The notes: generated by a model not told the origin, from the sequence alone. Shown: positions 1-62,911, counted from the stretch's first letter. The stretch: DNA of 64,000 bases from Candidatus Latescibacterota bacterium (GCA_965207885.1 OZ242311.1:2400001-2464000); one strand, 5' to 3'. Numbers and translations: made by a program.

Positions 1-226
1 CCGCTGCATGGACCATGGCCTCCACCGCTGTGCGATCCGACACATCGGCCCGGATCGCCATAGCCTGTCCTCCATCCCGCTCAATCTCGATCACAGCACT
101 TTCGGCCGCCTGAGCATGGGCGGCGTAGTTGACCACCACCGCCGCACCCTGGCGCGCCAGTTCTCGGGAGATCGCCCGGCCGATTCCTCGTCCCCCGCCG
201 GTCACCACGGCAACGCGATTTTCCAT
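1..226 (-). CDS. SDR family NAD(P)-dependent oxidoreductase (FabG-like), 5' part only; runs off the window edge
   Basis: Not in the ORF track. Manual translation from ATG at 226 gives MENRVAVVTGGGRGIGRAISRELARQGAAVVVNY...ADVSD, with the SDR TGxxxGIG motif. Confidence 0.9.
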   Translation of the reverse strand, partial: MENRVAVVTGGGRGIGRAISRELARQGAAVVVNYAAHAQAAESAVIEIERDGGQAMAIRADVSDRTAVEAMVHAA

Positions 227-301
227 ACCTCGAAGAGGGGATGGTTTTGTATCGTTCTCCATAATTCCGGCCTCCAGGACAATTTATGAAAAATCGTCAC
301 C

Positions 302-1498
302 TCAAAGTTCCGCACTCGACGCTTCCCCATAGGGCAGTGGATAGAGCGGTTTCATCTCATCGTGTCGATCCGCAATCTGTGGGATAGAGATCGGTCGATG
401 CGCCGCCTTCGACTCGTTGACCGCGACTGCTCCGGCACATGTGCGCGCCGCTTCATAGACATTGATCTCCGACATACAATCGTTCTCGATCGAGTGGATC
501 AAGTCCATCCAACTGAAGAACTCCACACCGCCATGCCCTACCTTCCTGACCATATCCTGGGTGATCCACTCCGGTAGTGGAACCGGCGGCACCTCAATCG
601 GACGCATCTCGTAAGGCCCGGTATAAGGCTTGGGTCCGGCGCCGTCCTCCACCAGACATCCGTAAAGCCCCGTACTGTCCGGGGGCGCAGGCAGATACCC
701 CGTAGATTCGATCGTGCCCTTCGTACCCCACACCGATTTTGTAATTTCCTTGTAGGGACGCCTCGCTGCCTTTGAACACTGGACCCGTGCAATCGCCCCG
801 GAGGCCGTCCGAAACAGAGCCACATCGTGGTCGTCCACGTTCCGGCTGGGCAGATTCTTGCGATTGCCGTAGGCAAAAACCTCCGTGAAGTCCTCTCCCA
901 GAAACCACCGGGCCGTGTCCACAGCATAGATGCCGGCTCCGGCAGACACAGATTCCTGTGCCTTCACCCCGTAGCCCATCCGGAAACCCTCTTTTTTCAT
1001 GAGTCCGCCTCCGCCCTGCTGCCGAATATCCTGTAAATATTCGCAGATCACGTAATAGATTTCCCCCACCTGGCCATCGTCGATCAACTGCTTCATCTTC
1101 ACTGACTCCGGGATCCACCGGTCCGGGCAGTCCATCTGGACCTTCAGATGCTGGCGTTCGGCCATCGTGATAATTTTCCAGAGCCGTTCCATGGACTCGT
1201 TTTCCATCGGCGTCTCAACCATCACATGCTTGCCGGCATCCAGCGCTGCCAGCACCATCTGCCCGTGGATATGACAGGGCGAACAGATACACAGAATGTC
1301 CAGGTCCGTGTCCGAAAGCAAGTCCGCGTAATGCGTGGTTGTCTTGCCTATGTCCAGTTCTTTAGCCGTGTTCTGCAGCCGCTCCTCGTTCACATCACAG
1401 ATCACAGCGCACTCGGTCTGCTCAAGGTATTCGTGGGTTAGACGAACATGGCTTCTTCCGTGACCGAGCCCGACCACACCGACCTTGTAAGTCTTCAT
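302..1498 (-). CDS. Gfo/Idh/MocA family oxidoreductase
   Basis: KVGVVGLGHG Rossmann start and AGKHVMVETPM (variant of the EKP motif). Start trimmed to MKTYK. Confidence 0.88.
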   Translation of the reverse strand: MKTYKVGVVGLGHGRSHVRLTHEYLEQTECAVICDVNEERLQNTAKELDIGKTTTHYADLLSDTDLDILCICSPCHIHGQMVLAALDAGKHVMVETPMENESMERLWKIITMAERQHLKVQMDCPDRWIPESVKMKQLIDDGQVGEIYYVICEYLQDIRQQGGGGLMKKEGFRMGYGVKAQESVSAGAGIYAVDTARWFLGEDFTEVFAYGNRKNLPSRNVDDHDVALFRTASGAIARVQCSKAARRPYKEITKSVWGTKGTIESTGYLPAPPDSTGLYGCLVEDGAGPKPYTGPYEMRPIEVPPVPLPEWITQDMVRKVGHGGVEFFSWMDLIHSIENDCMSEINVYEAARTCAGAVAVNESKAAHRPISIPQIADRHDEMKPLYPLPYGEASSAEL

Positions 1499-1632
1499 TT
1501 CCAGCACCCCCACCTTTAAATGAATTCCTCAAAAAAAACTGGCGTCCCTTGGATATCCGTTTAATTCAAGAATACGATCAAGGACCACCAGAAAGAAATG
1601 AGGACAGAAATACGAGAATAGTCCGCAAAATC

Positions 1633-1691: not shown

Positions 1692-2630
1692 TCAGAACGT
1701 CCCATTCACCGTGAATCTCAAAGGTGCGTTGAAGAATTTGCTATGGGTGTAAGCGATATCTACACTGAGCGATGCGGCACCGAAAGCCCGCTTGAGCCCG
1801 GCACCGACGCTGAAATCCTCGGCGTCGTAATTCCACTTGTATCCCCCCCTCAGTGCCAGTGTATTGGCCAACCAAAGTTCAGCACCCATGTGAACGCGTC
1901 CTTCGTAATCAATCGCAAACACGTTCTCTGCTGAAAGTGTCAGGTAAGTGGGATCTCCCACCTTCCCGATCACCTCCATGGCCCCGGCGATTGTGTAAAC
2001 CACCGGCATAAAAGAGCTCTCTGCGATAACGGTGTTGTCCTGCCCGAAGTTCTTCAGGGTCATCGCCAACCGGAAAGACTGGAAACCAGTGTAGAAAAGC
2101 GTACCGACGCTGGCATCAAAAGTCGTATTCGAATCTTCGAACAGAGACTCTTGAAGGTACCTGAAGTTTGCACCGAAAGAGAGCCTATCGGTGAACTGGT
2201 AGGCATAGGCAACACCGAACGCGATGTCGTCCCCCTCTACCATCTTGCCGGTGCCCATGGGTTCGAAAATAGTCGTCTCCTCAAATGGCTTCGTCCGGAA
2301 CGACACCATGCTGACCCCGAAGACCGAAGCACCTAAACGATAAGCCACGGCACCCGAGTAGAGTTTTGAATCGGCAAACCAGCGATTGTAAGAAAAGGTA
2401 TATGCAGCCCTCTCGATGTGGGTCAGACCAGCCGGATTCCAGAAGATGCTATTGATATCGTTAGAAATGGCCATATACGCAGATCCCATCGCCGCAGGGC
2501 GAGCCGATTGGCCAATCTTCACAAAGTTGAACCCGGTCGTACCCAGTTTCTTGAAGATGGCCTCTGCATCCACGGCCAGAAACGGCCCCATTAGTGCGGC
2601 CAAAGTGGCTATCAACAGACTGCGTCTCAT
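1692..2630 (-). CDS. PorV/PorQ family (UPF0164) outer-membrane beta-barrel protein
   Basis: Signal peptide, FVKIGQSARPAAMGSAY..NDINSIFWNPAGL PorV/FadL-type signature, C-terminal Phe. SD AAGGAGG before ATG 2630. Confidence 0.85.
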   Translation of the reverse strand: MRRSLLIATLAALMGPFLAVDAEAIFKKLGTTGFNFVKIGQSARPAAMGSAYMAISNDINSIFWNPAGLTHIERAAYTFSYNRWFADSKLYSGAVAYRLGASVFGVSMVSFRTKPFEETTIFEPMGTGKMVEGDDIAFGVAYAYQFTDRLSFGANFRYLQESLFEDSNTTFDASVGTLFYTGFQSFRLAMTLKNFGQDNTVIAESSFMPVVYTIAGAMEVIGKVGDPTYLTLSAENVFAIDYEGRVHMGAELWLANTLALRGGYKWNYDAEDFSVGAGLKRAFGAASLSVDIAYTHSKFFNAPLRFTVNGTF

Positions 2631-2658
2631 TTTTATGCCTCCTTTCATGGTCGCACGG

Positions 2659-4875
2659 TTATTTGACAATCATAAAAGTCCCTGTCTTCTTCTCGCCTTC
2701 GCTCCCCGGCATCAGCGACTCCACCACGAAGAAATACTTCCCCGTCGAGACCTTCGACGCGAAATTCAGTACCACCTGATTCCAACTCGTCTCTCCCCGA
2801 ATCGGGGACCTCGTCCGCACCGGGTTATCGACTACCGCGACCAGATCTCCAGAGACGGTAAAGATCGAGATCTTGCACCTTCTGGGCACATTCACAAACC
2901 GGATCTCTTCGCTACCGCCCGGGTAGCGGTGGATGTCGTCGAGTCTGAACGGGTTGGGTACCACAATCACCGGATCCTCGAAACGGTCTTTCTTATCGGA
3001 AGCCACCACAAATGGTATGCTTTGCAGGTGCGTCCTCGTCTCGGGCGCGCCGTGTCCGCTCTCCAGGGAAGGAATCGCCATCCCTGTACCGTTCCAGTCG
3101 GTGTGCCCAGTGTCGTAGCTTCGGACGGAGTACCAATAACTGAACCCCGCGAGCGAGGAGGCATCCTTGTAGCTGTGTGTGCCAGTCGAGAGGTCCACCA
3201 GAAGCTCCCAGGGGCCCATAGACGTGAGTTCCGACCGGTAGATCCGGTAGCCAGCTACATCCCGCGCCTCGGCGGTCCCCATATAGTCGGGGTCTTCGGC
3301 GGCCTCTGCGTCGGCAGACCAGGACAGCAGGTTGTTCCCGTCCTCGTCGCTTTCCACCGTGAATCTGATGTCGGGTGGCGCGTCAGGGATATCGTAGTTG
3401 TTGGCGTAGGCAAACCGGGCCCGATCCAGGTGCTGAGCCAGTGCCCGTTCGCCGTCGGACACCTGAGCCTGGGCACCCGGCTGCCTGCTCCACCCAAAAA
3501 TGTCCACCGTTTCTCCTGAGCTTGCAAATTCGGCTCCGGTGCCGGCCACCCAGGCCACCACGACCTTAGCTTTGTCGCCGGGTCCCAGATCGTAGGGACC
3601 ATAGGTCTGGGCAAAGCCCATGTTCATAAGCTCTGTGGGATTGTCCTGGGGGTGATTTGGCGAGATGGGGCGCGTCCCCTGCCCGGTCATCTCCAGGTAG
3701 ATCTCTTCGTCGGACATAGGATGCTCCGGCGTATCGATGTCGTCCAGGCTGCGGATTTGCCACCAGAAGGGGAAGGCTGGCTGGTCGGGATTCTTCGGTG
3801 CTACATAGACCTCGTCGTCCTGGGCGAATCCGTCGGTCGGATCGGCGTCTAACAGAGCCAGCCCGATATACTGAAATGCCCGGAGCTGCCCTTCTTTGAG
3901 AAGGCCGGAGTTTCGGACATTGCCCGGGGCCTCGGCCAGCCGGGCGGGCTCTCCCGTGTCATCGGCCTGGTCAAAGGGATAGTCGCCGTCATAGACGTAC
4001 TGGATCTTTTTTCCCCTCAGATCCGCGTGGCCATCGAAATTGGGCGCTTCGCTGTACTTGAACCAGTCGTCCTGCACGCGGGTGCTCACATCCTCCCAGC
4101 CACTGGTCCAGCCCTCCCACATGTGCCCTGCCCGGGAGACTCTGGGCAGATTGAAAAATGAAAGGTAGGTATCGTTCAACTGCTTTGTTCCGGTATTCTC
4201 CAGAATGACCTCTTGAATGATGAAGTCGTCGTAGTCCGGGTAGCCCCACGCCTTGGCCTTTCGAGTCACGACAATCCCGGTTTCGGTGCCCCACTGCGTA
4301 ATCAAGATTTCCTCGGGCTGGGTGTCGTTGGGAATGTACCGATTGTAGTCGAAGTTGTGGATCTCCGTCACATCGTTGACCACCGGCGGTGCTCCCGGCC
4401 AGTAGTTGGCCGTCACTGATCCAGTCGCCGGGGAGACCGTCCGCACTCCCAGGTCTTTCTCCGGACCGGCGGAGGCATCGTAGGTCATCGGCACGATATC
4501 CTCTGTGACGATCCGGGGGTTGGACATCGACACATTGTAGAAGCCGTTCTCGTCCTTTGTCAGCACATAGATGCCCTCTCCCTGGCTGGTGTGAGTCGAA
4601 CGGTCCGCAAAGTCGATGCTCTCCTTAACTCCCCAGTAGTCTTCAAAGTCTCCCTCCAAAATGGGAGCGCCGGGGTACATCAGGCCCGCGTCCCACAGCC
4701 TCGTCCAACTCCTGGTCATGCCCTCGGTCTTACCCTGGATGCCGTTGCTGCGATAGCCCGACCAGAGCAGCCCCCGGGTCAGGTTCCGCATCGGCGCAGC
4801 CTGGGCCCAAAGGCTACACGGCAGGAACAACAGCGACAGCACCACAGGCCAGAGGCCTATTCTCACTATTCGCAT
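2659..4875 (-). CDS. Secreted protein with an FnIII-like module and a T9SS type-A/FlgD-like C-terminal domain
   Basis: Signal peptide; LSWS..VAGYRIYRS..YWYSVRSYD FnIII pattern; C-terminal VVPNPF..IRFVNVP..ISIFTVSGDLV..W..STGKYFFVV..GTFMIVK. Confidence 0.75.
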   Translation of the reverse strand: MRIVRIGLWPVVLSLLFLPCSLWAQAAPMRNLTRGLLWSGYRSNGIQGKTEGMTRSWTRLWDAGLMYPGAPILEGDFEDYWGVKESIDFADRSTHTSQGEGIYVLTKDENGFYNVSMSNPRIVTEDIVPMTYDASAGPEKDLGVRTVSPATGSVTANYWPGAPPVVNDVTEIHNFDYNRYIPNDTQPEEILITQWGTETGIVVTRKAKAWGYPDYDDFIIQEVILENTGTKQLNDTYLSFFNLPRVSRAGHMWEGWTSGWEDVSTRVQDDWFKYSEAPNFDGHADLRGKKIQYVYDGDYPFDQADDTGEPARLAEAPGNVRNSGLLKEGQLRAFQYIGLALLDADPTDGFAQDDEVYVAPKNPDQPAFPFWWQIRSLDDIDTPEHPMSDEEIYLEMTGQGTRPISPNHPQDNPTELMNMGFAQTYGPYDLGPGDKAKVVVAWVAGTGAEFASSGETVDIFGWSRQPGAQAQVSDGERALAQHLDRARFAYANNYDIPDAPPDIRFTVESDEDGNNLLSWSADAEAAEDPDYMGTAEARDVAGYRIYRSELTSMGPWELLVDLSTGTHSYKDASSLAGFSYWYSVRSYDTGHTDWNGTGMAIPSLESGHGAPETRTHLQSIPFVVASDKKDRFEDPVIVVPNPFRLDDIHRYPGGSEEIRFVNVPRRCKISIFTVSGDLVAVVDNPVRTRSPIRGETSWNQVVLNFASKVSTGKYFFVVESLMPGSEGEKKTGTFMIVK

Positions 4876-4906
4876 CTTGAAACCTCCTTGTGATAATAAG
4901 GAGCGC

Positions 4907-4940
4907 CTGGGATTGAGCCACAGCCTGTGTTCAATCCCAG
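4907..4940. other. Intercistronic stem-loop without a U-tract
   Basis: CTGGGATTGA-gcCACAG / CTGTGt-TCAATCCCAG inverted repeat between the receptor and CTD genes. Confidence 0.55.
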
Positions 4941-4969
4941 ACCCTGAGATATAAAACAGAGTTGACCTG

Positions 4970-7900
4970 TCAGAAGGATACCATCACCCCCAGTTCGATC
5001 TCCCTTGGAAACCCGGCATATCGACTCAGTTCTCCGGTATCGCCGAACTGTTTGTACTTGCCGCTGTCGGGTCTTGGCCGATCCAGACCGTTTTTCCACC
5101 AGTCCACATCCGGCCTGGGCTGTAGATCGCGCTGGTTAAACAGGTTCCTGACGTTGAAATAGAGTGTAGGGCGCACCTGGTTGCGAAGCTGGAATCGCTT
5201 CACAAAGGCCAGGTCGGTCCGGGTATGCATAGGTCCGAACCACCACTTCGGTGGTTCGCCAGGTAGTGCGAACCGCCTGGCCCTCCCCTCCTGCATCCGA
5301 TAGACCATCGTGACGCTGATGTCGCCCCACACCGGTCCATAGTCCGTCGGCGAGTGATACACAAACACCACCGATCCGAAACCCGGTCGTTCGGTCCCAA
5401 AGGTCCCCTGCGCTGTGTTCCGTCCCCGGGGGTTTACGTTAAACTGTTTGTAGGACCACATGCCTGGCCAATCCTCCATTTCTTTAATCTCGGATTCCTT
5501 CGTTGGGTCGTAGTCCGCCGCGGTGCCATTCTGGATGGCCCGGAGCCGTTCGTTGGCCCGATGGCCGAATTCCTGGATCTCATCGGCGGTCAGCAGCACC
5601 GGTACTTCCGCTCCGGAATCGCTGCTGTTCACCTGCCCGTCGCCGTTGGTGTCCCGGGAGTGCGTCACATAGTAGTTGGATCCGGTGGCGACCCAGTTCG
5701 AGTCGGGCACAAAGTAGGTCCGCCACCACCCGGACTGGCGTGCGGCCGACACCCACTGCTTATTGTACGAAACCAGGAATGAGAACCCGTGGCTGAGATT
5801 CTTCCTCAGCGAGAGTTCGATGCCCCGGACATCCTCATAGGAGTTATTCCTCCAGTCAGCCCCACCGCGCTGGGGAGCCTGCTTCTGCGGGTCCCACCAG
5901 TAGCTATTGCCGTAGAAGAACTGATCCGTCCCACTCTTGTAGAAGACCGTCAGAGAACTGATGTAGTCCCCGACAAAGTTCCAGTCGGTCCCGACCTCGA
6001 AGCTGGTGGTCGTTTCATACTTAATGTGGTTCCAGAATCCGGACCAGTCCCGCGAGTCCGATTGGTTTCCGACCTCTGTCGGGTCGATCTGTCCGTTGTT
6101 GTTGAAATCCGCTGCCCGGGCTCGACTGACCCATCCATACTGAGCGATGTACCATGTGGAGGGCAACTGGCGGAACACGCCAAAGGAGTAGCGGATCGTA
6201 GCTCTGTCGGTGATCGGGTGTGAGACCCCAACCCGGGGGCTCCAGGCCTGCAAGGCCTTGGCATCCACCAGGGGGATGAGCTGTTGGCGCGTCCACGATT
6301 TGGTCATCGGCGCCATCGACCAGAGTCCGTGTTCGCCCTGAGGCACCTGGGTGCCCCAATCCAGTCGGTCATAGCGAGCGCCCACGTTCAGGACCAGCCC
6401 GTGAAACTCCATCTTGTCCTGGATGTACCAGGACGACTGGATAGGTTCCCACGGCGTATCCCTGGTATATGGCTTCCCGGCTACGCGCAGGGCAAAACTC
6501 GTCATACTTCGCCAGCGTTCCCATACGGTCAGCACCTTGTCGAACGCGACCTCGAACCCACTCTTGACGAAGTGACCCTTTGTGATCTGGCTGGAGAAAT
6601 CGAGCTTGAAGTTGACCCGTTCTCGCTTCGTAAGCTGATACTCGGTTCTCGTCGAGGGAGCGGCCGTGAAGTAGCCGTCCGCGTCCCGGCGAATGTCCTC
6701 GGTAAGGCCTTCTCCGTATTGATCTACCGGTACGTTGGTGGTGTCCTGGTTATCTCGGAAAAAGGAAAGCTTCGCCTCGTAAAATGTCTTGGGCGTCAGG
6801 ATGTGGGTCAGCGATACATAGACCAGGTCGTTTTTATACTTGACCTGCCCGGCCCCACTCCCCTCAGGGAGAAAGATGTCGCGGCCCAACTGCCTTCTGG
6901 CGCCTGAGCCTCCCCAGTAGCTTCCTGAACGACCGTAGATGCCCCCCACGCCCACCTTGAACTTTGAACGAGCGATCCCGGTCAGTTTGTAGGAGGTCTC
7001 GATGTTGCCAGGAGAGGCGACCCAACCCGATTTTCGATCCGGGTAGAGGTAGAAGCCGCGCTGTTTGCCCTCTGGAAATATCGCCGCCAACCCCCGATAT
7101 CTGGCCGAGGTAAAAAAGGAGGCATTTTCGACCACCGGTCCAGACAGAGTCCCCTCTATGCGGTGGCCGATCACGCCGGTGTAGTCGATCCGCTCGTGCA
7201 CCCTCCGTCCGGTCACCGGGTCGGTTTCGCCCGTCCAGTTCGAATCGTTCCACTTCATCTTATCTTCATAATAGGGACTGTCATAGACGTTGCTGCCCCA
7301 GTGCTTTTTCCCGGCTGGATTCAACAGGTAATCCAGGTTGCCGTGGAAGTCCCTGCTCCCCTCCTTTGTCACAATGTTGACAACACCCGCCTGGGCGTTG
7401 CCGTACTCGGCCTCCATCCCGCCTGTAACCACGGCGAGTTCCTGAACAGCACTGGAGTTGACGCTCTGAAAATTTCGGCTGGCGTGCGACCGCCGCTCCA
7501 CATTGACTGCAGACATGGGTACTCCATCGACGTAGTAAACCACGTCACTGCTCCCGGAGCCAGATGACGACGTGTCTCCACCCCGGATTGAAGTGTCTCC
7601 GTCCAGACCGACCCCGGCCAGGAGCTCAAGTACCTGTTCGGTGTCCTTGACGATGGGAGCGACCTCCTCGACGTTGGAGTTGTCCAGGATGTATTTGGTG
7701 GTTGTCCTGTCCGGCTCCACTGGGGGCCGCTCAGCAACGACCACGATTGCAGCCATATCCAGGGTGGTCTCCTTCAGGGCAAAATCTACAGTCGTCGTAA
7801 AATCAGCGATGGCCTGGACGTCCGTCTTAGAAATCTGGTCGTAGCCGATCATGGACGCTGTCAGCGTGTAGGTCCCCGGATTCACCAGCAAGATCAAGTA

Positions 7901-8101
7901 GTCCCCATCTGGCCCCGTGGTGGTGCCCTGTGAGGTGCCCTCGATGATCACATTTGCCCCGGGCAACGCCTGGCCGTTGCTGTCAACGATCTGACCTTTA
8001 ATCTTTCCTGTGGTTCCGGCAACCACCTGCTCGGAGGTCGCCGAGAACAGCAGCAGAAAGGCGAGCAACCCTACAATCCAGAAAACACGATCACTCTTCA
8101 T
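4970..8101 (-). CDS. TonB-dependent receptor with N-terminal carboxypeptidase-regulatory-like domain
   Basis: GTTGKIKGQIVD..LPGANVIIEGT; plug motifs SIRGG, YYVDGVP, TGGMEAEYGNAQAGVVNIVTKEG; ends NLFN..PREIELGVMVSF. Confidence 0.92.
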   Translation of the reverse strand: MKSDRVFWIVGLLAFLLLFSATSEQVVAGTTGKIKGQIVDSNGQALPGANVIIEGTSQGTTTGPDGDYLILLVNPGTYTLTASMIGYDQISKTDVQAIADFTTTVDFALKETTLDMAAIVVVAERPPVEPDRTTTKYILDNSNVEEVAPIVKDTEQVLELLAGVGLDGDTSIRGGDTSSSGSGSSDVVYYVDGVPMSAVNVERRSHASRNFQSVNSSAVQELAVVTGGMEAEYGNAQAGVVNIVTKEGSRDFHGNLDYLLNPAGKKHWGSNVYDSPYYEDKMKWNDSNWTGETDPVTGRRVHERIDYTGVIGHRIEGTLSGPVVENASFFTSARYRGLAAIFPEGKQRGFYLYPDRKSGWVASPGNIETSYKLTGIARSKFKVGVGGIYGRSGSYWGGSGARRQLGRDIFLPEGSGAGQVKYKNDLVYVSLTHILTPKTFYEAKLSFFRDNQDTTNVPVDQYGEGLTEDIRRDADGYFTAAPSTRTEYQLTKRERVNFKLDFSSQITKGHFVKSGFEVAFDKVLTVWERWRSMTSFALRVAGKPYTRDTPWEPIQSSWYIQDKMEFHGLVLNVGARYDRLDWGTQVPQGEHGLWSMAPMTKSWTRQQLIPLVDAKALQAWSPRVGVSHPITDRATIRYSFGVFRQLPSTWYIAQYGWVSRARAADFNNNGQIDPTEVGNQSDSRDWSGFWNHIKYETTTSFEVGTDWNFVGDYISSLTVFYKSGTDQFFYGNSYWWDPQKQAPQRGGADWRNNSYEDVRGIELSLRKNLSHGFSFLVSYNKQWVSAARQSGWWRTYFVPDSNWVATGSNYYVTHSRDTNGDGQVNSSDSGAEVPVLLTADEIQEFGHRANERLRAIQNGTAADYDPTKESEIKEMEDWPGMWSYKQFNVNPRGRNTAQGTFGTERPGFGSVVFVYHSPTDYGPVWGDISVTMVYRMQEGRARRFALPGEPPKWWFGPMHTRTDLAFVKRFQLRNQVRPTLYFNVRNLFNQRDLQPRPDVDWWKNGLDRPRPDSGKYKQFGDTGELSRYAGFPREIELGVMVSF

Positions 8102-8131
8102 ATTCTTCTCCTTTTATTAACAGGTTGCGGA

Positions 8132-8827
8132 TCACATATAAAACTTCACTCCAGCCCCGATGTCGAACAAGTGAAACGGATGGGTCTTTTTCACACCCCA
8201 GTTCAGGAAGGGTCTGAGTTCCCCAACGATCACATTGTAACTCACACGCAGGTCCAGGGCAGCCTTCGGTCCCAGGAAGATCTGCATCCCAGCCCCTCCG
8301 CTTACACCCAGCGCTGTCCGCGTATCGTCGATCGCCTCCAGGAGCAGGGTCTGATCCAGCGTAGCTCCCCCTTGTTCGGGAAAGATGAGCCCGCTCACCT
8401 TAGAATGGTAGTTGTGGAATCCGGCTCCAACGGTAAGATAGGGAACGCTTCCTTCGCCTTCGAACTTCTTATTCTTCAGGGCAAAAAGCCAGTTGACCGT
8501 CAGGCTGTTAAAGGTCATATCGGACTTGGCCTGTGGACTTGTGTAGTCCCTTCCATCCTTGAACCGAAACGTCCGCTCTTCGAGACTGCCGCCCGCAAAC
8601 TTCGAGTAATAGTACTCTACTTCCACGATCCGTGCCGGACTGGTTACAAAGTGCGCAGCAGCCCCAAGCTTGAATCCCTCGGTGTACATATCCCTGAAGT
8701 TAAACAGCGGCGAATAAAGCTCGGCGAACACGCCGAACCCCCCTCTGTGGCCCTCTTCCTGAGCCACAGCAAAAGCCGTGGGCGACAACACCCACAAAAG
8801 AATCCATAAACCCATGATCTTTCTCAT
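8132..8827 (-). CDS. Small outer-membrane beta-barrel protein (OmpA/OmpW-like strands)
   Basis: Signal peptide, PYLTVGAGF, amphipathic strands, ends IGAGVKFYM. SD GGAGG before ATG 8827. Confidence 0.7.
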   Translation of the reverse strand: MRKIMGLWILLWVLSPTAFAVAQEEGHRGGFGVFAELYSPLFNFRDMYTEGFKLGAAAHFVTSPARIVEVEYYYSKFAGGSLEERTFRFKDGRDYTSPQAKSDMTFNSLTVNWLFALKNKKFEGEGSVPYLTVGAGFHNYHSKVSGLIFPEQGGATLDQTLLLEAIDDTRTALGVSGGAGMQIFLGPKAALDLRVSYNVIVGELRPFLNWGVKKTHPFHLFDIGAGVKFYM

Positions 8828-8876
8828 AAACACCTCCTTGAAGATACGCAGTCATTTTTCGATCAACCCACTCGTC

Positions 8877-9995
8877 TCAGATGATCTCCCTTTCCGGACC
8901 GAGCCGATTGTAAAACTGGGGGATATAGACCTTCCGGCCACCCTCGTTGATCGAGATTAGCGAACTGATTGCCGCAGCGCAGCTCTTTGCCGCTTCGTAA
9001 ACGTTGATAAATGGCAGCCTATCGTCTAAAATCGCATCTACGAAGTCGCGGCAGTTGTGGTACGTACCGCCGCCGTGACCGGTTCTTTTGGCAACTTCGG
9101 CATCCAGTTCGAGCCCTACCAACTCCAAGGGCTCAATCTCTCCGGGAAGCCCACCCTCCTCCTGTGCATGTGCAATACCGAGTACTCCATTACGCCGATC
9201 TCCCTCAACGGCCGCCCTGGTGCCGTATAGCGACTTGTAGAGGTTGCAGCCGGGCCAGGCCATCGCCTTGCAACAGGCAATCTTTACCGTCACCCCACCG
9301 GTCGTCCTGAAAATTGCTGTCTCCCAGTCGTTGACTGTCCGATATGGCGAGTAAATGCGGTTTCCCAATCCGACCACCTCGGTGAAGTCCTGCCCGATGA
9401 TCCAGCGGATGTCGTCGATCGCGTGAATGCCGCCGCCAGAAGAGATACTCTCCTGCGTCGTCGTACCGAACCCGTCCCGCCAGGTCTTTTTCCCATCTCT
9501 TACAAACAGGTACACCAGGCTGTGTGTATATTCAGACTCGGCGTAGCATACCTCGCCGATTGTGCCATCTTTCACCAGCCGCCTCAGGGTGATCGTGCGT
9601 GGATCCCACCGGCTATTCTGCTCCATGGCCAGCTTCAGGCCTGTTCGTTCTACCGCCTTGACGATCTCCATGCACTGGTGCAGCTTGTCGGCATTCTCCA
9701 CCATCGGAATGGTCGTCAGGATGTGCTTTCCCGCCTCCAGGGCCGCCAGACACTCATCTCCGTGGCGAAATCCCGGCGTGCCCGTGCATATGAAGTCCAC
9801 GTCCTGGTCGGCCAGCAGGTCCCCGTAGTCTGTATAGACTCTGGGCACCCCGTATTCCCTGGCGAACTGGTTCGCCTTTTCCTCGTCTATATCGCACACC
9901 GCAGCGACATCCACTTCGTCGATGTAGTCGTGGAATGTCCTCAGATGCGACTCCCCGAATCCAAGCCCCACGATCCCGGCCTTCAAGGTAGCCAT
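8877..9995 (-). CDS. Gfo/Idh/MocA family oxidoreductase
   Basis: KAGIVGLGFG and LEAGKHILTTIPM. Shares GHGG and INVYEAAxxCA with the 302-1498 paralog. Confidence 0.88.
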   Translation of the reverse strand: MATLKAGIVGLGFGESHLRTFHDYIDEVDVAAVCDIDEEKANQFAREYGVPRVYTDYGDLLADQDVDFICTGTPGFRHGDECLAALEAGKHILTTIPMVENADKLHQCMEIVKAVERTGLKLAMEQNSRWDPRTITLRRLVKDGTIGEVCYAESEYTHSLVYLFVRDGKKTWRDGFGTTTQESISSGGGIHAIDDIRWIIGQDFTEVVGLGNRIYSPYRTVNDWETAIFRTTGGVTVKIACCKAMAWPGCNLYKSLYGTRAAVEGDRRNGVLGIAHAQEEGGLPGEIEPLELVGLELDAEVAKRTGHGGGTYHNCRDFVDAILDDRLPFINVYEAAKSCAAAISSLISINEGGRKVYIPQFYNRLGPEREII

Positions 9996-10341: not shown

Positions 10342-11034
10342 TTACTGCGTGCGCTTTACCCATTGCCTCATGCCGGTGTCGAAGTGATCCCACACTGCCT
10401 GCCGCATCCCGTTTGGATCACGCGCCTTCAGAGCGAGGAAGATCCGCTCGTGGTTCTGGAAGTGTTCCAGGTCAATGCTCTCCCAATCCCACCACTCGCG
10501 GTGCGCCGTAACGAAAAATTCACTCAGTACTCGTCCAAGAGCCTGAGTCGCCTGGTTCCCCGTTGCTTCGTAGGTCGCAAAGTGAAACGCCCAGTCGTGC
10601 GTATAAAACTCGACAGGACGTTCTAACGCCTCCCGCATCGCTTCCAGGTGTTGCCCCATCACTTCCAGCTGATCTTCAGTTACGCGCTCTATTACCATCT
10701 CCACAATTCCAATATCCACCGCCCGCCGCAATTCGTACATCTCTATAATCGTCTTTTTATTTATGGATGGAACAAAGCTCAGATACTTAAACAAAGCCTG
10801 AGGATCGAACTCTTTGACACTGATCCCATGCTTGGGACGAGCTTCCAGAACGCCTATTGCCTCTAAGATCTTGACCGCTTCTCGAACGGAGGCACGACTC
10901 ACACCAAACGCTTCTGCCATCTCTCGCTCTGTGGCCAACCTGTCTCCGGGCATCAATCCATTCTGCAAAATATGGTTCTTGATTGCACCGATGATCCTCT
11001 TACTCAGATTTTCTTTTTCAATGCTATTAAACAA
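10342..11034 (-). CDS. FadR/GntR family transcriptional regulator
   Basis: PGDRLATEREMAEAFGVSRASVREAVKILE HTH and FCD domain (ELRRAVD, DWAFH..ATGN). Start reassigned to TTG 11034 after GGGAGA. Confidence 0.9.
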   Translation of the reverse strand: MFNSIEKENLSKRIIGAIKNHILQNGLMPGDRLATEREMAEAFGVSRASVREAVKILEAIGVLEARPKHGISVKEFDPQALFKYLSFVPSINKKTIIEMYELRRAVDIGIVEMVIERVTEDQLEVMGQHLEAMREALERPVEFYTHDWAFHFATYEATGNQATQALGRVLSEFFVTAHREWWDWESIDLEHFQNHERIFLALKARDPNGMRQAVWDHFDTGMRQWVKRTQ

Positions 11035-11103
11035 ATTCCATTCTCCCGGCCTTTCATTGTACAGATATTGGTTTACAAAACCAGCCATATCATTATATGG
11101 TAT

Positions 11104-11154
11104 AATGGTCAGACCATTGGTAAAAATAATACACTTATTCACATCATCTGTCAA
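11104..11154 (-). promoter_or_regulatory. Promoter and FadR-type operator of the GntR gene
   Basis: Minus strand TTGACA-N17-TATTAT, followed by the palindrome AATGGTCnGACCATT (11104-11118), which matches the FadR-subfamily TGGT-N3-ACCA box. Confidence 0.75.
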
Positions 11155-12968: not shown

Positions 12969-15497
12969 CTAATGCTCGTTCGAGACACGCTTGTTTTTCG
13001 ACCGTCTTCCATAGTGGAAGCCGATCTCGCGTGTGGCCGTCTCACCACTCACCAGGTCCGTGATTGTCACTTCCAGGACGTTGATACCGGGTTTGGTCTT
13101 GCTCAAATCCAGCTCTACATACTCATTTTCACTCGATTCCGATCCGACCTGCTCGTAGGTCACTGAGACCTGAGGTTTCTTGCTCCTGAGGAGGGATCGG
13201 AACCCAGAGGCAACCATTCCGACAATCCCCACCGAACCTTCGGGGCTGAACCGAACCAGATATTGCACCTTGTAGCGGGTCTGACCAAAAGCGTCTTTAT
13301 TCAGGTTGTAGATCTCGAAATAGGCATAGACCTTCTGATCCGATTTGTAGGCACGGGAGGGCATCGGCACCACCCAGATATTGCCCTTCCGAAATCTGTT
13401 GTTCGATCCTTTATCGCCGATGGCGGAAGCGAGCTCAATGTCGCTCATCTGGAGCGTCATCGACCGGTAGTCCTCAATCTCCAGCGACTGTTTATAGACC
13501 CCGACGTGTCCTGCGATCAGGTCCTTGAGGTGAACCTGAAGTTCGTATTTTCCCGGTGGCACCTGGACCTGAAGCACATCGGGGACAAACGTCCCTTTTG
13601 CCCAGTCGGCTTCTCCGGTATTTCGATAGGAAAACGTATCTGTCGTTCGATAGATGTTGGTGTGGCCTTCGTCCGCCAGTGCCAGTGCAGCCTGCACATG
13701 GATCATCGAACCCGTGTCCTTTTCGACGAATTCTAATTGTTTGGGTGAAATGCCGTAATAGACTTCGAGCGTGGTCTGCCCATCGGGGCCTCGGAAGTCG
13801 GCCAGGTCGTAGTAGAAGTGGAGAGCAGAGCCTCGGAGGCTGGGACGGTAATAGTCCGGGGTTGCGACAACAGTCCTTTCAAAGACGAGTTTGGGCGCAT
13901 ATTCGAGCATTCGCGCCGTGTATTTCAACTGTCTTTGCCCGGCAGGTATCGGGGGAATCGGGGCAAAGTCGTAGGTGCGGTTGCCCAGTTCGTCGGTAAA
14001 GGTAAACTCGATGCCGTTCTGGATCTGTGTATAAGTCCAGGTCTCCCAGGGAACTGTATTGACCTCGTTGTCGATCGTGAGGGGCGTATAGCCCTGGAAA
14101 TTGAGCCGAGTCTTTATATCCAGGATATCATCGGAAAGGCTCCCGAGTTCATCTTCTTGTGGAGTGGGAATATTCTGCAACATAAGGCGATCCAGATCCG
14201 AATCCGTCGATCCCGAAAGCGCTTCAACATTCTCATCATCCAGGATGGGATCTCCAACGGCTGTCCCTTCAGCCATCTGACGAGGGTCAACGGTGATGTC
14301 ATCGGACAGAGCGTCACGGCGCGTCCGGACCGGGAAGACCGGTCCGGTAAAAGTCAAATAGTTGGCCTCGGGTCCATACATATCCACCGCCATCCGGGTG
14401 CGCACGGCCTCAACTTCGGCATTCACACTGAGTTGCCTCAGGTCGGACCGCGACCTGAAGTCGGGCTCCCCATAGCGGATATAGACCTCTCCCCGCCGGT
14501 CCCAGGGATGGGGTCCCGCAGCGAAGAAGGTGCGGGCATACCACACCCGGCGGTAGTGCTCGATGATACGCTCGTTGATAGGGGTCAGGATATCGGAATC
14601 CCGACGCATCCAGAACTGCTCCAGATAGGCCTGGCGCTTCGCTGCTTCAGCGATAGCCCGATAATCGTCGAGTTCTTTCCTGGAGGCCACGAGTGAGATA
14701 TCCGTATAGATCTGGCGTTCCCCTTCGTTCAGGTTCTGTAGATAGCGTTCGAAGTACTCCAGGGCTGATTCGAAGCGCTCATGGAAGAAATAGCCCTGGG
14801 CCACCAGGGGCAGGAGCCGGAACTCCTGGGGATTGGCCTCAAGGTAAGGGATGAGGTAGGTGTTAATCTTGTCATATTGCCTGGCCCGCACGCAGGAAAG
14901 CCCGAATGCGTAGAGGCCATCCGGGTCATTGGACTCCAGTTTAACGTATTTTAAATAGTATCCAATCGCCTTTTGGTGATCCCCCCGAAAGTGTTCGTAG
15001 GCCTCTCCGAGAAGCAAGTAGGCCGGGGCGTAAGCCGAATCGATCTTGGCCGCCCGCTTGCCCTCGCCCACAGCACGTCGGAAATTGTAGAAGGCCGCCA
15101 GTCCTTTGCCAGGCATCTTGACGTGGGTCAGCCCCAAACCCACGCGGGCATTGGGGAGGTTGGGATCGAGTTCCCTGGCCGCTGCGAAGGCATCTTTGGC
15201 TACCTCGAAGTCTTCCTTCTTGAGGGCAGCGTAGCCGAGCCGGATCTGAAGGGCGGCGTCTTTCGGGTATGCCTCGGCCAGGCGGGCAAATGTATCAACG
15301 GCCTTGCCCAACTCGTTCGCTCGCATCTGTTGCTCTCCCAGGGCGATCATAGAGTCCCGCTCGGCTTTGGAGAGGACTTGTGGTGCCGCCTCGGACGGTA
15401 GATCCTGGGCAGAGATGGCAAGTGTGAGGATCCAGATTGACGTCCAGGGGACCCAAAAAGAGAAAGTAAAACGCCGAAATCCGACAGAAACTCCCAT
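12969..15497 (-). CDS. TPR-repeat GWxTD-domain protein
   Basis: N-terminal hydrophobic segment, TPR-like helices, FWMRRD..NERIIEHYRRVWYA..PWDRRGEVYIRYGEPD and WETWTY. Confidence 0.82.
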   Translation of the reverse strand: MGVSVGFRRFTFSFWVPWTSIWILTLAISAQDLPSEAAPQVLSKAERDSMIALGEQQMRANELGKAVDTFARLAEAYPKDAALQIRLGYAALKKEDFEVAKDAFAAARELDPNLPNARVGLGLTHVKMPGKGLAAFYNFRRAVGEGKRAAKIDSAYAPAYLLLGEAYEHFRGDHQKAIGYYLKYVKLESNDPDGLYAFGLSCVRARQYDKINTYLIPYLEANPQEFRLLPLVAQGYFFHERFESALEYFERYLQNLNEGERQIYTDISLVASRKELDDYRAIAEAAKRQAYLEQFWMRRDSDILTPINERIIEHYRRVWYARTFFAAGPHPWDRRGEVYIRYGEPDFRSRSDLRQLSVNAEVEAVRTRMAVDMYGPEANYLTFTGPVFPVRTRRDALSDDITVDPRQMAEGTAVGDPILDDENVEALSGSTDSDLDRLMLQNIPTPQEDELGSLSDDILDIKTRLNFQGYTPLTIDNEVNTVPWETWTYTQIQNGIEFTFTDELGNRTYDFAPIPPIPAGQRQLKYTARMLEYAPKLVFERTVVATPDYYRPSLRGSALHFYYDLADFRGPDGQTTLEVYYGISPKQLEFVEKDTGSMIHVQAALALADEGHTNIYRTTDTFSYRNTGEADWAKGTFVPDVLQVQVPPGKYELQVHLKDLIAGHVGVYKQSLEIEDYRSMTLQMSDIELASAIGDKGSNNRFRKGNIWVVPMPSRAYKSDQKVYAYFEIYNLNKDAFGQTRYKVQYLVRFSPEGSVGIVGMVASGFRSLLRSKKPQVSVTYEQVGSESSENEYVELDLSKTKPGINVLEVTITDLVSGETATREIGFHYGRRSKNKRVSNEH

Positions 15498-15816
15498 TGT
15501 ACACCTCCACTCTCTACACCGGTGGGATCTTGACTGTGAAGATGGATCCTTTTCCAACTGCCATCATATTTCCAGGGCTTCAGAATAATATAAGGTTTGC
15601 TAACAGGGGAAGTCAAGCGGCAGGTACAATCCGGTCTCGTTATATTGCTGTGTCCTCGTGAAGTCCTGGATGAAAAAACTCCTTTTGAAATTTTTTAAAA
15701 AAAGCTAACTTAAACCAAAGACTGTCAGGCCGGGTTTCCCAGGTACACTCTTGACGCGAAATCTATTCAGTTGGAGACGAGGCCCACCATATAAGTAATC
15801 GTTTAACTGGACATTA

Positions 15817-20979: not shown

Positions 20980-21882
20980 TTAAAACTCTCTACTTCGCAA
21001 CAATTCCAGTACGCGCTCGAGGTCGTCATTGCTGTAAAATTCGATTTCGATTTTGCCTTTGGAGCCTCTGCGGCTGATGTTGACCGCTGTGCCAAAATAA
21101 CGCTGGAGATCTTCTTCGAGAAATAGCAAGTTGGGGTCTTTGGGTGGCGTGGATTTTTTGGGCGTGGTGTCTTCTTTGAGTGCTTTGACGAGGGCTTCTG
21201 TGCGGCGAACCGATAATTCCTGTGCAATAATCCGCTGGCATAGGGCAATTTGTTGTTCCGCGTTGTCAAGGCCCAGCAGTGCGCGGGCGTGACCTGCAGA
21301 TATCTGCCCGGCTTGGAGTGCGTCGAGGACTTCTGGTGTCAATGCGAGGAGGCGCAAGGTGTTGGCAATGGTCGAGCGGTCTTTGCCCACATGTTCGGCA
21401 ACTTCTTCCTGTGTTAGAAAACACTCCTCTATGAGCATGCGATAGGCTTTGGCTTCTTCTATGGGGTTGAGATTTTCCCGCTGGATGTTTTCTATCAGCG
21501 AGAGTTCCATCATTTCCTGGTCTGTCCCCACATCCATAACAATCGCAGGTACGACCGCGAGTTCGGCCTGACGCGCTGCGCGGAAACGTCGCTCGCCTGC
21601 GATCAGTTGATAGCCCGAGCCAAAGCGGCGCACAGAAACAGGCTGTATGATGCCTTTTTCGCGGATTGATTGCGCCAATTCTCCCACGGCTTTGGGATCG
21701 AATTCCGTGCGTGGCTGGTGGGGATTAGGTTCAATATCATCAATGGGTATTTCGATGATTTGCCGTTGGGTCTGTCCCGTAGGCGAAGGAGCAATTTCCG
21801 ATGTGATTTTTTCGGCAGGAGCTGTATCTGCACCGGGAATCAGGGCGCCCAATCCCTTGCCGAGGGCATTGCGTTTAGCCAT
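20980..21882 (-). CDS. parB: Chromosome partitioning protein ParB/Spo0J
   Basis: [41 protein letters not shown]. Confidence 0.96.
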
Positions 21883-22636
21883 TGATGACCTCCCCGGCTA
21901 AGTTCATGTAATTTTGCGCGCCGGTAGATATAATATCGTAGAGGATGATGGGTTTGCCAAAGCTGGGTGCTTCGCCGAGTTTGACATTGCGAGTGATAAT
22001 CGTGTTATAGACGCGGTCGCCAAAATGCGATTTGGTTTCTTCGGCAACCTGGCGCGCCAGATTGAGACGTCCGTCGTACATTGTGAGCAGTACGCCTTCA
22101 ATGGCGAGATGGGGGTTGAGGTGTTGCTGCACGAGGCGCAGGGTGTTGAGCAATTTGCTCAGGCCCTCGAGCGCGTAGTATTCGCATTGTATGGGAATGA
22201 GCACGGAGTCGGCTGCCGTCAGCGCGTTGAGCGTGAGCAATCCCAGTGAGGGAGGGCAGTCGATGATGATGAAGTCGTAGGTTTCGCGCGCTTGCGAGAG
22301 GGCATTTTTGAGTCGTTGTTCGCGCGAAATGATGGAGACCATTTCCACTTCGGCACCAGTGAGGCGAATGTGAGATGGCGCTATGCTGAGAAAGGGCAGG
22401 TCGCTCTGATAGATGACTTCCATTAAAGGTACGTCTTCGAGGAGTACTTCGTACACACAGGGCGTTTGTTCATCTACCTCAATGCCACATCCGCTGGACG
22501 CGTTGGCCTGTGGGTCTATGTCGAGTAGCAGGGTTTTCTTTTCAGCAGTAGCCAGACACGCAGATAGGTTGACGGCTGTGGTGGTTTTGCCCACGCCGCC
22601 TTTTTGATTGGCTATGGCAATGACCCGTGCAGACAT
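21875..22636 (-). CDS. parA: Chromosome partitioning ATPase ParA/Soj
   Basis: [40 protein letters not shown]. Confidence 0.96.
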
Positions 22637-36909: not shown

Positions 36910-37554
36910 TCAATGCAAACTGAAACGGATCGGGATGGTCATGCGTACCGCAATTGCTCTGTCATTTTGCATGGCTGGCTCGAACAGAAATTGCCTGACC
37001 GCCTCCAGAGCTGCAGCGCGAAAAATCTCGGGGCCTTTTAAAACTCGCGGTTCGGCTACGCGCCCTTCTCTGGTCACTATAAACGCCATAATCACCTGGC
37101 CCTGTAAACCCGCTCTGCGGGCCATCTCTGGATAAACCGGGTTCACGAACTTGATCAACTCGGGTTTCTGTTCCACGATCCAGAATTCCAAAATTTCTTC
37201 CTCTACTTCCACATCGTTCTTCTGCAGCGGTGGTGGGATATCGACGACAGGTGCATCGAAATCCAGTTCTGTATCGGCTATGGTCACATCATCGGGCACG
37301 TCTTTGTCTTCTGTTTCAATGGGTACGGAGGGTCTTGGCAGAGGTGGCAATCGCTTCTTCTGATGTGTCTCGGGAATATCTTCAACCTTAAGGACTTCAA
37401 TAACTTTTTTGGTCGATTTAGAGTCGATCTTCATATCTGGAAACAATATGGCCAATCCGACCATCAGAAACAGCGTCAATGAAGTAGAACGTCTCATCAC
37501 CTTTGGATAATTTGCTTTCAAATCGGCATCTGCATGTTTTTTGCGAATCATCAT
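36910..37554 (-). CDS. tonB: Energy transducer TonB
   Basis: TM anchor, Pro-rich linker, PVYPEMARRAGLQGQV..FEPAMQ..IPIRFSL. Confidence 0.9.
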   Translation of the reverse strand: MMIRKKHADADLKANYPKVMRRSTSLTLFLMVGLAILFPDMKIDSKSTKKVIEVLKVEDIPETHQKKRLPPLPRPSVPIETEDKDVPDDVTIADTELDFDAPVVDIPPPLQKNDVEVEEEILEFWIVEQKPELIKFVNPVYPEMARRAGLQGQVIMAFIVTREGRVAEPRVLKGPEIFRAAALEAVRQFLFEPAMQNDRAIAVRMTIPIRFSLH

Positions 37555-59604: not shown

Positions 59605-59637
59605 AGATTCGAAACATAAAACAGCCTTTTTGTTTCG

Positions 59638-59674
59638 AAACCGTGGGTATTCAATTTGAATGCCTGCGGTTTTT
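59638..59674 (+). terminator. Intrinsic terminator after copy 1
   Basis: AAACCGTGGGTATTCAA/TTGAATGCCTGCGGTTT (G-U pairs) plus T-run. Confidence 0.7.
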
Positions 59675-59806
59675 GGTTTAATTGATGCTGGATTTGAGAT
59701 CCTTCACGTTTGGGAAGAGCCGACCAAAAATCATGATCGATGGCGTCAGAATTGTTTTCACGCTCTGCCCAACGGATTCTATATGGTCTGTAAGAAGAAG
59801 CAATAA
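59675..59806 (+). pseudogene. Orphan 3' tail of a probable class I SAM methyltransferase gene
   Basis: Manual translation GLIDAGFEILHVWEEP...LPNGFYMVCKKKQ-stop; no start codon. Confidence 0.5.
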
Positions 59807-59911
59807 GTACGACAAAAACACTTGACAACGACTGCTGAAAACTCCTTCTTACCAGCCATTCATGCGCAAGAAATGGCCCTTTTAGTTTCTACACATAGAG
59901 GAGATTAGAAG

Positions 59912-60928: not shown

Positions 60929-60957
60929 AACTTTTTGGCCAAATGATAGCGAAAATA

Positions 60958-60994
60958 GAAAAATGCCGTGAGATTTTTTCTCACGGCGTTTTTC
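60958..60994. terminator. Palindromic element / bidirectional terminator, copy A
   Basis: GAAAAATGCCGTGAGA-tttt-TTCTCACGGCGTTTTTC. Confidence 0.7.
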
Positions 60995-61020
60995 ATTGAT
61001 TCACCGTAGAGAAAGGAGCT

Positions 61021-62895: not shown

Positions 62896-62911
62896 TTGCT
62901 GGGAGTGATAT

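Follow-up and report, generated by a model that had tools for sequence, protein, structure and literature searches.

Which protein serves as partner to a TonB-dependent receptor where no SusD is encoded, and how might such a partner be held at the cell surface? This question is raised by a locus in a 64,000-nt stretch of DNA from a Candidatus Latescibacterota bacterium (GCA_965207885.1 OZ242311.1:2400001-2464000; hereafter, “the window”), in which four closely spaced genes encode a small outer-membrane β-barrel, a TonB-dependent receptor, a 738-amino-acid (aa) protein, and a barrel of the PorV/PorQ family. That these genes constitute a conserved module is almost certain. We tentatively interpret it as a SusD-free uptake module resembling a polysaccharide utilization locus (PUL), with a partner that is exported via a type IX secretion system (T9SS) and held by its uncleaved C-terminal domain (CTD) on a dedicated barrel. 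Such a module, present in multiple copies in non-Bacteroidia phyla within the Fibrobacteres–Chlorobi–Bacteroidetes (FCB) group, may play the part of SusC/SusD with a different build.

Conservation of the four-gene cassette

The initial annotation of the locus had described four close, co-oriented genes with signal peptides, flanked by two Gfo/Idh/MocA oxidoreductase genes and a short-chain dehydrogenase/reductase (SDR) gene, with no SusD and with a PorV-family gene right after the gene of the 738-aa protein. This description was borne out by the open reading frame (ORF) coordinates and by the Pfam and NCBIfam searches (Table 1), the SDR being a partial ORF. Consecutive core genes are separated by 30 bp and 94 bp and then overlap by 11 bp, and the translations of all four begin with hydrophobic, signal-peptide-like N-termini, as judged by eye. 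No match to the SusD family was obtained with Pfam and NCBIfam among the nine proteins scanned between positions 302 and 15557; in other words, the adjacent susC-/susD-like pair that marks a PUL in the SusCD sense is absent. In a scan that returned 11 promoter-like sites (5.7 expected) and 7 terminator-like sites (9.4 expected), and whose scope did not extend to FCB-type promoters, no site of either kind split the four core genes.

Relatives of the 738-aa protein (hereafter, the 738 family) were encoded by 263 stretches in species-representative genomes, and the best 80 of these gave 74 loci for comparison. The core order (small barrel, receptor, 738 family, and PorV-like barrel, all co-oriented) was nearly universal across the loci. 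Homologs of the PorV-like barrel, the receptor, and the small barrel were present at 69, 66, and 57 of the 74 loci, respectively. Of 70 cassettes, 57 had the small-barrel gene 5′ of the receptor gene, at a median distance of 18 bp; the 738-family gene was the gene right after the receptor in 69 cassettes (median gap, 19 bp), and a PorV-like gene lay directly 3′ of the 738-family gene in 72 of the 93 cases with room for one (median gap, 15.5 bp). When both neighbors were considered together, there was room on both sides for 82 of the 98 family ORFs that were 500 aa or longer, and 63 of these 82 had a receptor gene directly upstream and a PorV-like gene directly downstream. The other 19 were second copies, located a few kilobases downstream of a complete cassette and mostly in Neomarinimicrobiota. 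This gene arrangement is far beyond chance.

Going by their record titles, the loci derived from Latescibacterota (46), Neomarinimicrobiota/Marinimicrobia (13), Calditrichota (4), KSB1 (1), a “Gemmatimonas” metagenome-assembled genome (MAG; 4), bacteria of unstated phylum (5), and a “Poseidoniales” contig (1), so that the order was kept in exactly the phyla named beforehand (Latescibacterota, Marinisomatota, KSB1, and Calditrichota). A single Latescibacterota chromosome (OZ253501.1) carried at least 10 loci, and the window was 97% identical to one of the surveyed loci, L001. Among 24 dereplicated cassettes of the 55 that were complete, the pairwise distances of the four components were correlated with one another (Pearson coefficients of 0.78–0.96). 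The four components therefore co-diverge, indicating that the cassette evolves as a unit. When the profile of the 738 family was compared with 1.84 billion representatives, it matched 7698, 3068, and 590 clusters at E ≤1e−3, ≤1e−10, and ≤1e−30, respectively, the weakest of which surely include matches to the fibronectin type III (FN3) domain or the tail only. A word-indexed search returned 37 clusters of the family, all nameless or “hypothetical”.

Several individual loci departed from the common pattern. The PorV-like gene was split into two ORFs at L018:12198-13183, and the 738-family ORF at L003:9770-11983 stopped early, although tblastn aligned the locus to residue 738; in both cases, the frameshift reflects either an assembly error or decay of the cassette. 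The “Poseidoniales” locus (L047; CAYPWN010000107.1) was a 3.85-kb contig with a receptor gene and a 738-family gene in a “Poseidoniales archaeon” MAG; most probably, it is bacterial and was binned wrongly. In Neomarinimicrobiota cassettes, the small barrel and the receptor were separated by an extra protein of ~327 aa with a genuine Por_Secre_tail domain of 44.4 bits (L050:2715-3698, L037:200-1183, L055:2713-3693, and L040:1043-2032), and in these cassettes a second, barrel-less 738-family paralog followed genes for GDPD and ceramidase-like proteins.

The receptor and the small barrel

The receptor has a carboxypeptidase-regulatory-like N-terminal extension (residues 34–110) and a plug (residues 151–240) that scored 33.1 bits with Pfam Plug (cut-off, 23.9 bits), followed by a large barrel, as is general for TonB-dependent receptors. 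The barrel part, a conserved sequence of ~800 aa with an aromatic residue at its end, matched no model. When the receptor-family profile was compared with the PDB, the plugs of FepA, CirA, and PirA were found at E-values down to 1e−14 and the N-terminal extension of SusC at 1e−6. The score with the SusC/RagA model TIGR04056 was 57.4 bits, far below the cut-off of 368.25 bits, and the match covered the N-terminal extension only.

The score of the small barrel with OMP_b-brl was exactly at the cut-off. The sole PDB match of its family profile was the designed lectin MITSUBA-1 (E-value of 4e−7, over short stretches at profile positions 136–178), an odd match that probably stems from composition or repeats.

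The C-terminal tail of the 738-aa protein

The tail had been annotated as a type-A T9SS/FlgD-like CTD. The type-A models (Por_Secre_tail, PF18962/TIGR04183) gave no match at E ≤10, whether the whole protein, its last 108 aa, or its last 279 aa were searched. The last 108 aa matched the type-B model CHU_C (PF13585) with an E-value of 0.047 and a score of 14.2 bits against a cut-off of 27, and the model for the C-terminus of a T9SS-dependent M6-like protein with an E-value of 0.097. When the C-terminal 110 residues were modeled with AlphaFold2 (AF2) and 29 homologs, the model had a pLDDT of 77.4 and contained seven strands. Its best fold match in the PDB, and the only one at E ≤0.001, was PorZ (5m11; E-value of 2.4e−4, TMq of 0.61, 21% identity). 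Other T9SS proteins among the fold matches were the CTDs of NucA, RemZ, and RemA from SprA-PorV cryo-EM entries (ranks 12, 16, and 31) and PorU (rank 13). In the model, the tail adopts a compact immunoglobulin-like seven-strand sandwich at the extreme C-terminus, as a CTD of any type would; the T9SS CTD fold has been described as a 3+4 sandwich (PMC11285876).

Among 61 distant family members, seven weakly matched CHU_C (one of them above the cut-off, at 28 bits), two FlgD_ig, and one Por_Secre_tail, the last below threshold (20.1 versus 27 bits), whereas 49 had no Pfam match at all. Meanwhile, the family tail profile also detected unrelated small proteins from the same loci that bear genuine Por_Secre_tail or FlgD_ig domains (44.4 bits in L050, 42.8 and 30.1 bits in L026, and 42 bits in L058). 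Because of the predicted fold, the matches of the distant relatives, and this cross-detection, we regard the tail as a divergent T9SS-type CTD, to which no subtype is assigned. The annotation therefore holds in its CTD-like part, which is supported by the fold and weak family links, but not in its assignment to type A, for which the hidden Markov model (HMM) libraries gave only sub-threshold results. The tail was not placed in type B either, given that the CHU_C match was sub-threshold and the neighboring barrel belongs to the PorV/PorQ family rather than PorP/SprF.

One locus carried a variant cassette. The 1067-aa protein encoded at L025:8274-11477 differed in its N-terminus and matched nothing in Pfam, yet it had the same CTD (E-value of 4e−14 with the family tail profile) and sat between a receptor and a PorV-like gene, that is, in the same slot but as a different cargo. 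This variant fits the idea of a “CTD slot” in the cassette.

The PorV-like barrel and predicted docking of the CTD

The last core gene encodes a member of the PorV/PorQ family, scoring 167.1 bits with NF033709 (cut-off, 90) and 35.7 bits with Pfam PorV (cut-off, 27). It fell below the equivalog cut-offs for PorV (NF033710, 65.7 versus 250 bits), PorQ (NF033711, 73.9 versus 220 bits), and PorV2 (41.4 versus 325 bits), and no PorP/SprF match was found at E ≤0.01; judged from its sequence, the barrel appears to be neither PorQ nor PorP. In the PDB, the barrel-family profile detected PorV of Flavobacterium johnsoniae (6h3i_F) at 1.3e−20. The presence of this barrel in every cassette, together with the sub-equivalog scores of the window's copy, agrees with its earlier description as a dedicated PorV paralog.

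The barrel also matched Toluene_X/FadL weakly (E-value of 2e−4, 20 bits, below the cut-off). It might be a channel of the FadL type that takes hydrophobic or amphipathic substrates, with the 738-aa protein as its extracellular cap or substrate-delivery partner and the receptor taking another moiety of the same substrate; T9SS export would still be required, and the functional pair would be the barrel and the 738-aa protein. PorV is a FadL homolog, and in the β-barrel assembly machinery (BAM) complex of Bacteroidota, FadL-type barrels grip surface proteins via their loops (PMC12578637). The genes for ceramidase-like, GDPD, and PAP2 proteins in the Neomarinimicrobiota cassettes also hint at lipid-derived substrates. 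However, the score of the barrel with the PorV/PorQ family model far exceeded that with FadL, and in Latescibacterota, the genes beside the cassettes are of the sugar and sulfatase types. We therefore consider a channel of this type improbable.

To return to the tethering of the CTD, the mature barrel (residues 38–325, 29-row alignment) was folded together with the C-terminal 110 residues of the 738-aa protein. The predicted complex had ipSAE values of 0.89, 0.88, and 0.87, and the best of three controls had a value of 0.00; the pLDDT of the partner was 71 or higher, and the runs shared at least 90% of their contacts. Of 157 solved complexes, 116 attain the pass mark, as do 2 of 215 mismatched pairs; these rates are only rough here because our own alignments were used. 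In the model, the barrel contacts involve the N-terminal segment 40–52 and residues 97–101, 124–139, 174–181, 212–222, 254–255, 281–284, and 312–313, which probably lie on one face of the barrel, in the long extracellular loops. The previously suggested CTD-PorV interface thus held as a prediction (ipSAE of 0.88 versus 0.00), and it is likely that the CTD docks on its private barrel as modeled. There are precedents for such an arrangement: PorZ keeps its CTD, which binds PorQ; type-B cargo requires cognate PorP/SprF barrels, which are encoded next to it and have been proposed as anchors; and cognate PorV-like barrels have been suggested to shield CTDs from cleavage (PMC10202324).

The body of the 738-aa protein

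Even at E ≤10, neither Pfam nor NCBIfam provided a match for the 738-aa protein, and the full-length profile of its family found no relative among the PDB sequences. The full-length AF2 model (pLDDT of 82.2, pTM of 0.86) was almost all β. With Foldseek, residues ~26–495 gave weak matches to GH116, GH94, and related glycoside hydrolase/phosphorylase entries (E-values of ~3e−6, TM-scores of 0.22–0.26, root-mean-square deviations >10 Å); we do not read these as a sign of enzyme activity. The FN3-like domain was recognized from β strands at residues 505–588 of the model, FN3 structures in the Foldseek list, and a Pfam fn3 match in 1 of the 61 distant members. The family alignment contained the conserved acidic motifs YDDF, DGD, and DDTG and, in most members, a GDxxGDGxxD insertion after a conserved ENTG motif, which by eye looks calcium-binding. 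The window protein (window 3700-3760) and its closest aligned relative, P0002, are without this insertion (alignment columns ~373–390). No conserved lipobox cysteine was present in the family alignment. In the ESM Atlas, only “hypothetical protein” clusters (Fidelibacterota, Gemmatimonadota, and Ignavibacteriota) and no named look-alike of the N-terminal domain were found; one cluster had Por_Secre_tail on 17% of its members, and the cluster members behind eight family members carried no informative names.

These features bear on a second alternative, in which the 738-aa protein is ordinary T9SS cargo: a hydrolase or binding protein released after cleavage of its CTD, with the barrel as a private shuttle and the receptor importing the products without associating with the protein. 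PorV has indeed been described as a shuttle for CTD cargo (PMC5562754, PMC10202324). The conserved acidic clusters, the weak likeness to glycoside hydrolase/phosphorylase folds, and the 19 of 82 family genes without a barrel of their own are also consistent with release. However, enzymes of the GH116/GH94 type carry an (α/α)6 barrel, and the almost all-β model lacks the helical catalytic part expected of them. Moreover, a private shuttle in each cassette would be hard to justify if the cargo were simply freed, and the best fold match of the tail is PorZ, whose CTD is retained. Release of the protein as free cargo is therefore rather unlikely in our view.

Flanking genes

It had been proposed that the system feeds the flanking dehydrogenases. 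As a general role, this was not borne out: Gfo/Idh/MocA genes occurred at only 9–10 of the 74 loci and represent locus-specific cargo outside the conserved core. Because the flanking enzymes vary between loci, the link to dehydrogenases is particular to this locus. The recurrent neighbors of the cassettes included sulfatases, PhyH dioxygenases, ceramidase-like amidases, GDPD, YdjC, and BD-FAE esterase, as well as a sodium:solute symporter, amidohydrolase, M20 peptidase, β-helix protein, GH4, and xylose-isomerase-like barrels. A constant outer-membrane core combined with changing enzymes is a PUL-like pattern, which supports nutrient uptake as the general role. A ~660-aa polytopic DUF6785/DUF6784 membrane protein followed the cassette at 45 of the 74 loci and may be a candidate for the inner-membrane transporter of the system. 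Examples are found at L001:15666-17681, L007:14645-16630, L017:13287-15275, and L043:4743-6725, and the L001 gene would fall just past the left end of the window.

A third possibility is that the cassette is a surface-structure or adhesion unit, in which a tethered adhesin or S-layer-like protein sits on an anchor barrel, accompanies a receptor gene by association only, and has no role in uptake. An architecture of FN3 plus CTD is common in T9SS adhesins, and proteins with TPR/GWxTD domains stood beside the cassette at 33 of the 74 loci. Against this, the receptor is strictly adjacent at operon-like spacing across phyla, and the cassettes are surrounded by variable catabolic and transporter genes, so that a purely adhesive function seems very improbable. 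The GWxTD proteins often have TPR, and in one Latescibacterota cassette type they directly follow the PorV-like gene (e.g., L007:13253-14623).

In the window, a co-oriented GntR/FCD-family gene, which the initial annotation did not mention, lies directly upstream. It was found by phmmer at 5 of the 74 loci, only in the near-identical L001–L005, and its product is likely a local regulator. Genes for a CocE/NonD hydrolase and a TPR/GWxTD protein lie farther upstream of the core, and an S15 hydrolase was present at 4 of the 74 loci. In L001, the region corresponding to the DNA beyond the left edge of the window encodes an SDR (adh_short, 206.8 bits), an M20 peptidase, the DUF6785/6784 protein, a third Gfo/Idh/MocA protein, and an ABC transporter of the sugar type. 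The window's second Gfo/Idh/MocA gene (302-1513) is missing from L001 (window 222-1519; blastn), where the SDR gene directly follows the PorV-like gene; its counterpart is retained in L002–L005, indicating a recent indel among close relatives.

Proposed mechanism and evidence against it

In the mechanism that we propose for SusD-free uptake, the 738-aa protein would cross the inner membrane by Sec, as its signal peptide suggests, and would then be directed across the outer membrane by its CTD via the T9SS. Instead of being released, it would remain with its uncleaved CTD docked on the extracellular face of the barrel, a retention suggested by the predicted fold and docking and analogous to that of PorZ on PorQ and of type-B cargo on PorP/SprF. 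Export by the T9SS with retention at the surface is, in our assessment, probable. The N-terminal domain, standing beside the receptor, would capture or present the substrate for TonB-energized import; that the 738-aa protein cooperates with the receptor in this way is a tentative proposal, based only on the fixed place of the 738-family gene directly after the receptor gene, in the position of susD. Finally, the variable flanking genes would process the imported substrate, here with two Gfo/Idh/MocA dehydrogenases, an SDR, and a GntR regulator. It is also possible, if rather doubtful, that the cassette specifies a previously undescribed TonB uptake machine, in which the substrate-capturing surface partner is a type-IX-secreted non-lipoprotein of a new family, with its uncleaved CTD held non-covalently by a private barrel of the PorV family next to the receptor, and the fourth, small barrel completes the complex.

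Several observations weigh against this mechanism. The window tail had no significant match to a T9SS CTD model, and the CTD profile of the family found no CTD among the PDB sequences. The N-terminal domain matched no ligand-binding or catalytic family, and its fold matches were weak (TM-scores of 0.22–0.26). The docking score may be driven by the solved PorV-CTD complexes (8gl6, 8glk, and others) rather than by this particular pair. The partial correlation between CTD and PorV was 0.20 after controlling for the receptor, and the mirror-tree test thus gives no specific support for co-evolution at the interface. Because the 19 second copies among the 82 family genes lack a barrel or receptor of their own, one-to-one tethering cannot apply to all members. 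Finally, T9SS core genes were found neither among the other 30 window proteins nor among 63 recurrent or large neighbor proteins encoded within ~10 kb to the left or right of a cassette, a negative result that says little about whole genomes as it covers the window and these flanks only.

As for the wider occurrence of the T9SS, SprA has been called FCB-specific and lacking only in Chlorobiota among the FCB representatives compared, which include Gemmatimonas, Caldithrix, Fibrobacter, and Ignavibacterium but no Latescibacterota (PMC12611786). CTD proteins have been stated to be restricted to Bacteroidota (PMC10202324). The genuine Por_Secre_tail domains at Neomarinimicrobiota and Calditrichota loci speak against such a restriction.

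Comparison with known systems

Like SusC/SusD (RagA/RagB), the module has a large TonB-dependent receptor with a carboxypeptidase-regulatory-like N-terminal extension, followed by a gene for a signal-peptide protein (whose surface exposure is proposed here), and it occurs in many paralogous copies per genome amid variable catabolic genes. Unlike SusC/SusD, it has no SusD-family protein, its partner is not a lipoprotein, its receptor scores below the SusC/RagA cut-off, and its core contains two extra barrels.

The pairing of a CTD protein with a PorV/PorQ-family barrel recalls PorZ-PorQ (and PorU-PorV) of Porphyromonas gingivalis, with a modeled tail fold nearest to PorZ and a predicted docking. 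PorZ has β-propeller domains and serves secretion itself. The 738-aa protein differs from PorZ in its N-terminus, the barrel scores below the PorQ and PorV equivalog cut-offs, and the pair shares its operon with a TonB receptor and recurs many times per genome. As in type-B cargo with PorP/SprF (SprB-SprF), the genes for the cargo and its private barrel stand side by side, and the weak HMM matches of the family lean toward CHU_C (7 of 61 members); unlike SprB-SprF, the barrel belongs to the PorV/PorQ family, there is no link to gliding, and the pair is coupled to a TonB receptor. The same concept is seen in Proteobacteria, where the TbpA/TbpB and HpuA/HpuB systems with Slam encode a receptor, a surface partner, and a dedicated outer-membrane barrel together. 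The Slam systems, though, consist of unrelated protein families, with a lipoprotein as the partner and a DUF560 translocator, not a tether, as the barrel. Overall, the module would be SusCD-like in its working and PorZ-PorQ- or PorP/SprF-like in its tether, and it is built around a new protein family.

Features of the window

The genes of the locus are listed in Table 1. Elsewhere in the window are three PhyH dioxygenase paralogs (58588-63637), a second, shorter TonB-dependent receptor (791 aa; 22908-25283) without a 738-family or PorV partner, a TonB gene (36910-37554), and a parA/parB pair (20980-22636).

Table 1. Genes and protein domains at the locus, with positions counted from the first nucleotide of the window
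Feature	Position	Strand	Length	Model scores and remarks
SDR, N-terminal part	2-262	-	87 aa	Runs off the window edge; 81% identity to the L001 SDR
Gfo/Idh/MocA oxidoreductase (second)	302-1513	-	403 aa	Pfam 72.4 bits
PorV/PorQ-family 14-strand-type outer-membrane barrel, last core gene	1692-2669	-	325 aa	NF033709 167.1 bits
738-aa protein, core gene 3	2659-4875	-	738 aa	No Pfam/NCBIfam family
738-aa protein, residues 629-738: linker and T9SS-CTD-like seven-strand β-sandwich (predicted)	2662-2991	-		
738-aa protein, residues ~496-628: FN3-like domain	2992-3390	-		
738-aa protein, residues 1-495: signal peptide (~1-25) and large mostly-β domain	3391-4875	-		
TonB-dependent receptor, core gene 2	4970-8101	-	1043 aa	CarboxypepD_reg 71.2 bits, Plug 33.1 bits
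Small outer-membrane β-barrel, core gene 1	8132-8833	-	233 aa	Pfam OMP_b-brl 28.7 bits
Gfo/Idh/MocA oxidoreductase (first)	8877-9995	-	372 aa	Pfam GFO_IDH_MocA 76.6 bits
GntR/FCD-family regulator	10342-11154	-	270 aa	Pfam GntR 61.7 bits, FCD 78.2 bits
TPR/GWxTD protein	12969-15557	-		Upstream of the core

Implications for nutrient uptake in SusD-less phyla

No published description of the cassette, of GWxTD, or of DUF6785 was found in a search to which subscription journals and preprint supplements were largely closed. In the 2015 paper on Latescibacteria genomes, the only receptors mentioned are generic ones with a Plug domain, for B12 and iron. The 738 family itself (590 clusters at E ≤1e−30) is a large protein family without a Pfam model or a solved relative. 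PUL prediction relies on SusC/SusD pairs and is therefore blind to uptake loci in the SusD-less FCB phyla, which include abundant lineages of the ocean and sediments. The four-gene core, which is found in hundreds of species genomes and can number 10 copies or more in one of them, would provide a new handle for locating these loci and their substrates. If our interpretation is correct, the core would serve as a marker for PUL-like loci where SusD-based prediction finds nothing. It would also extend tethering by a private barrel, as in PorZ-PorQ and PorP/SprF, beyond the machinery of secretion and the adhesins of gliding to the acquisition of nutrients, and would tie the T9SS directly to nutrient import in Latescibacterota, Neomarinimicrobiota (SAR406), Calditrichota, KSB1, and their relatives.

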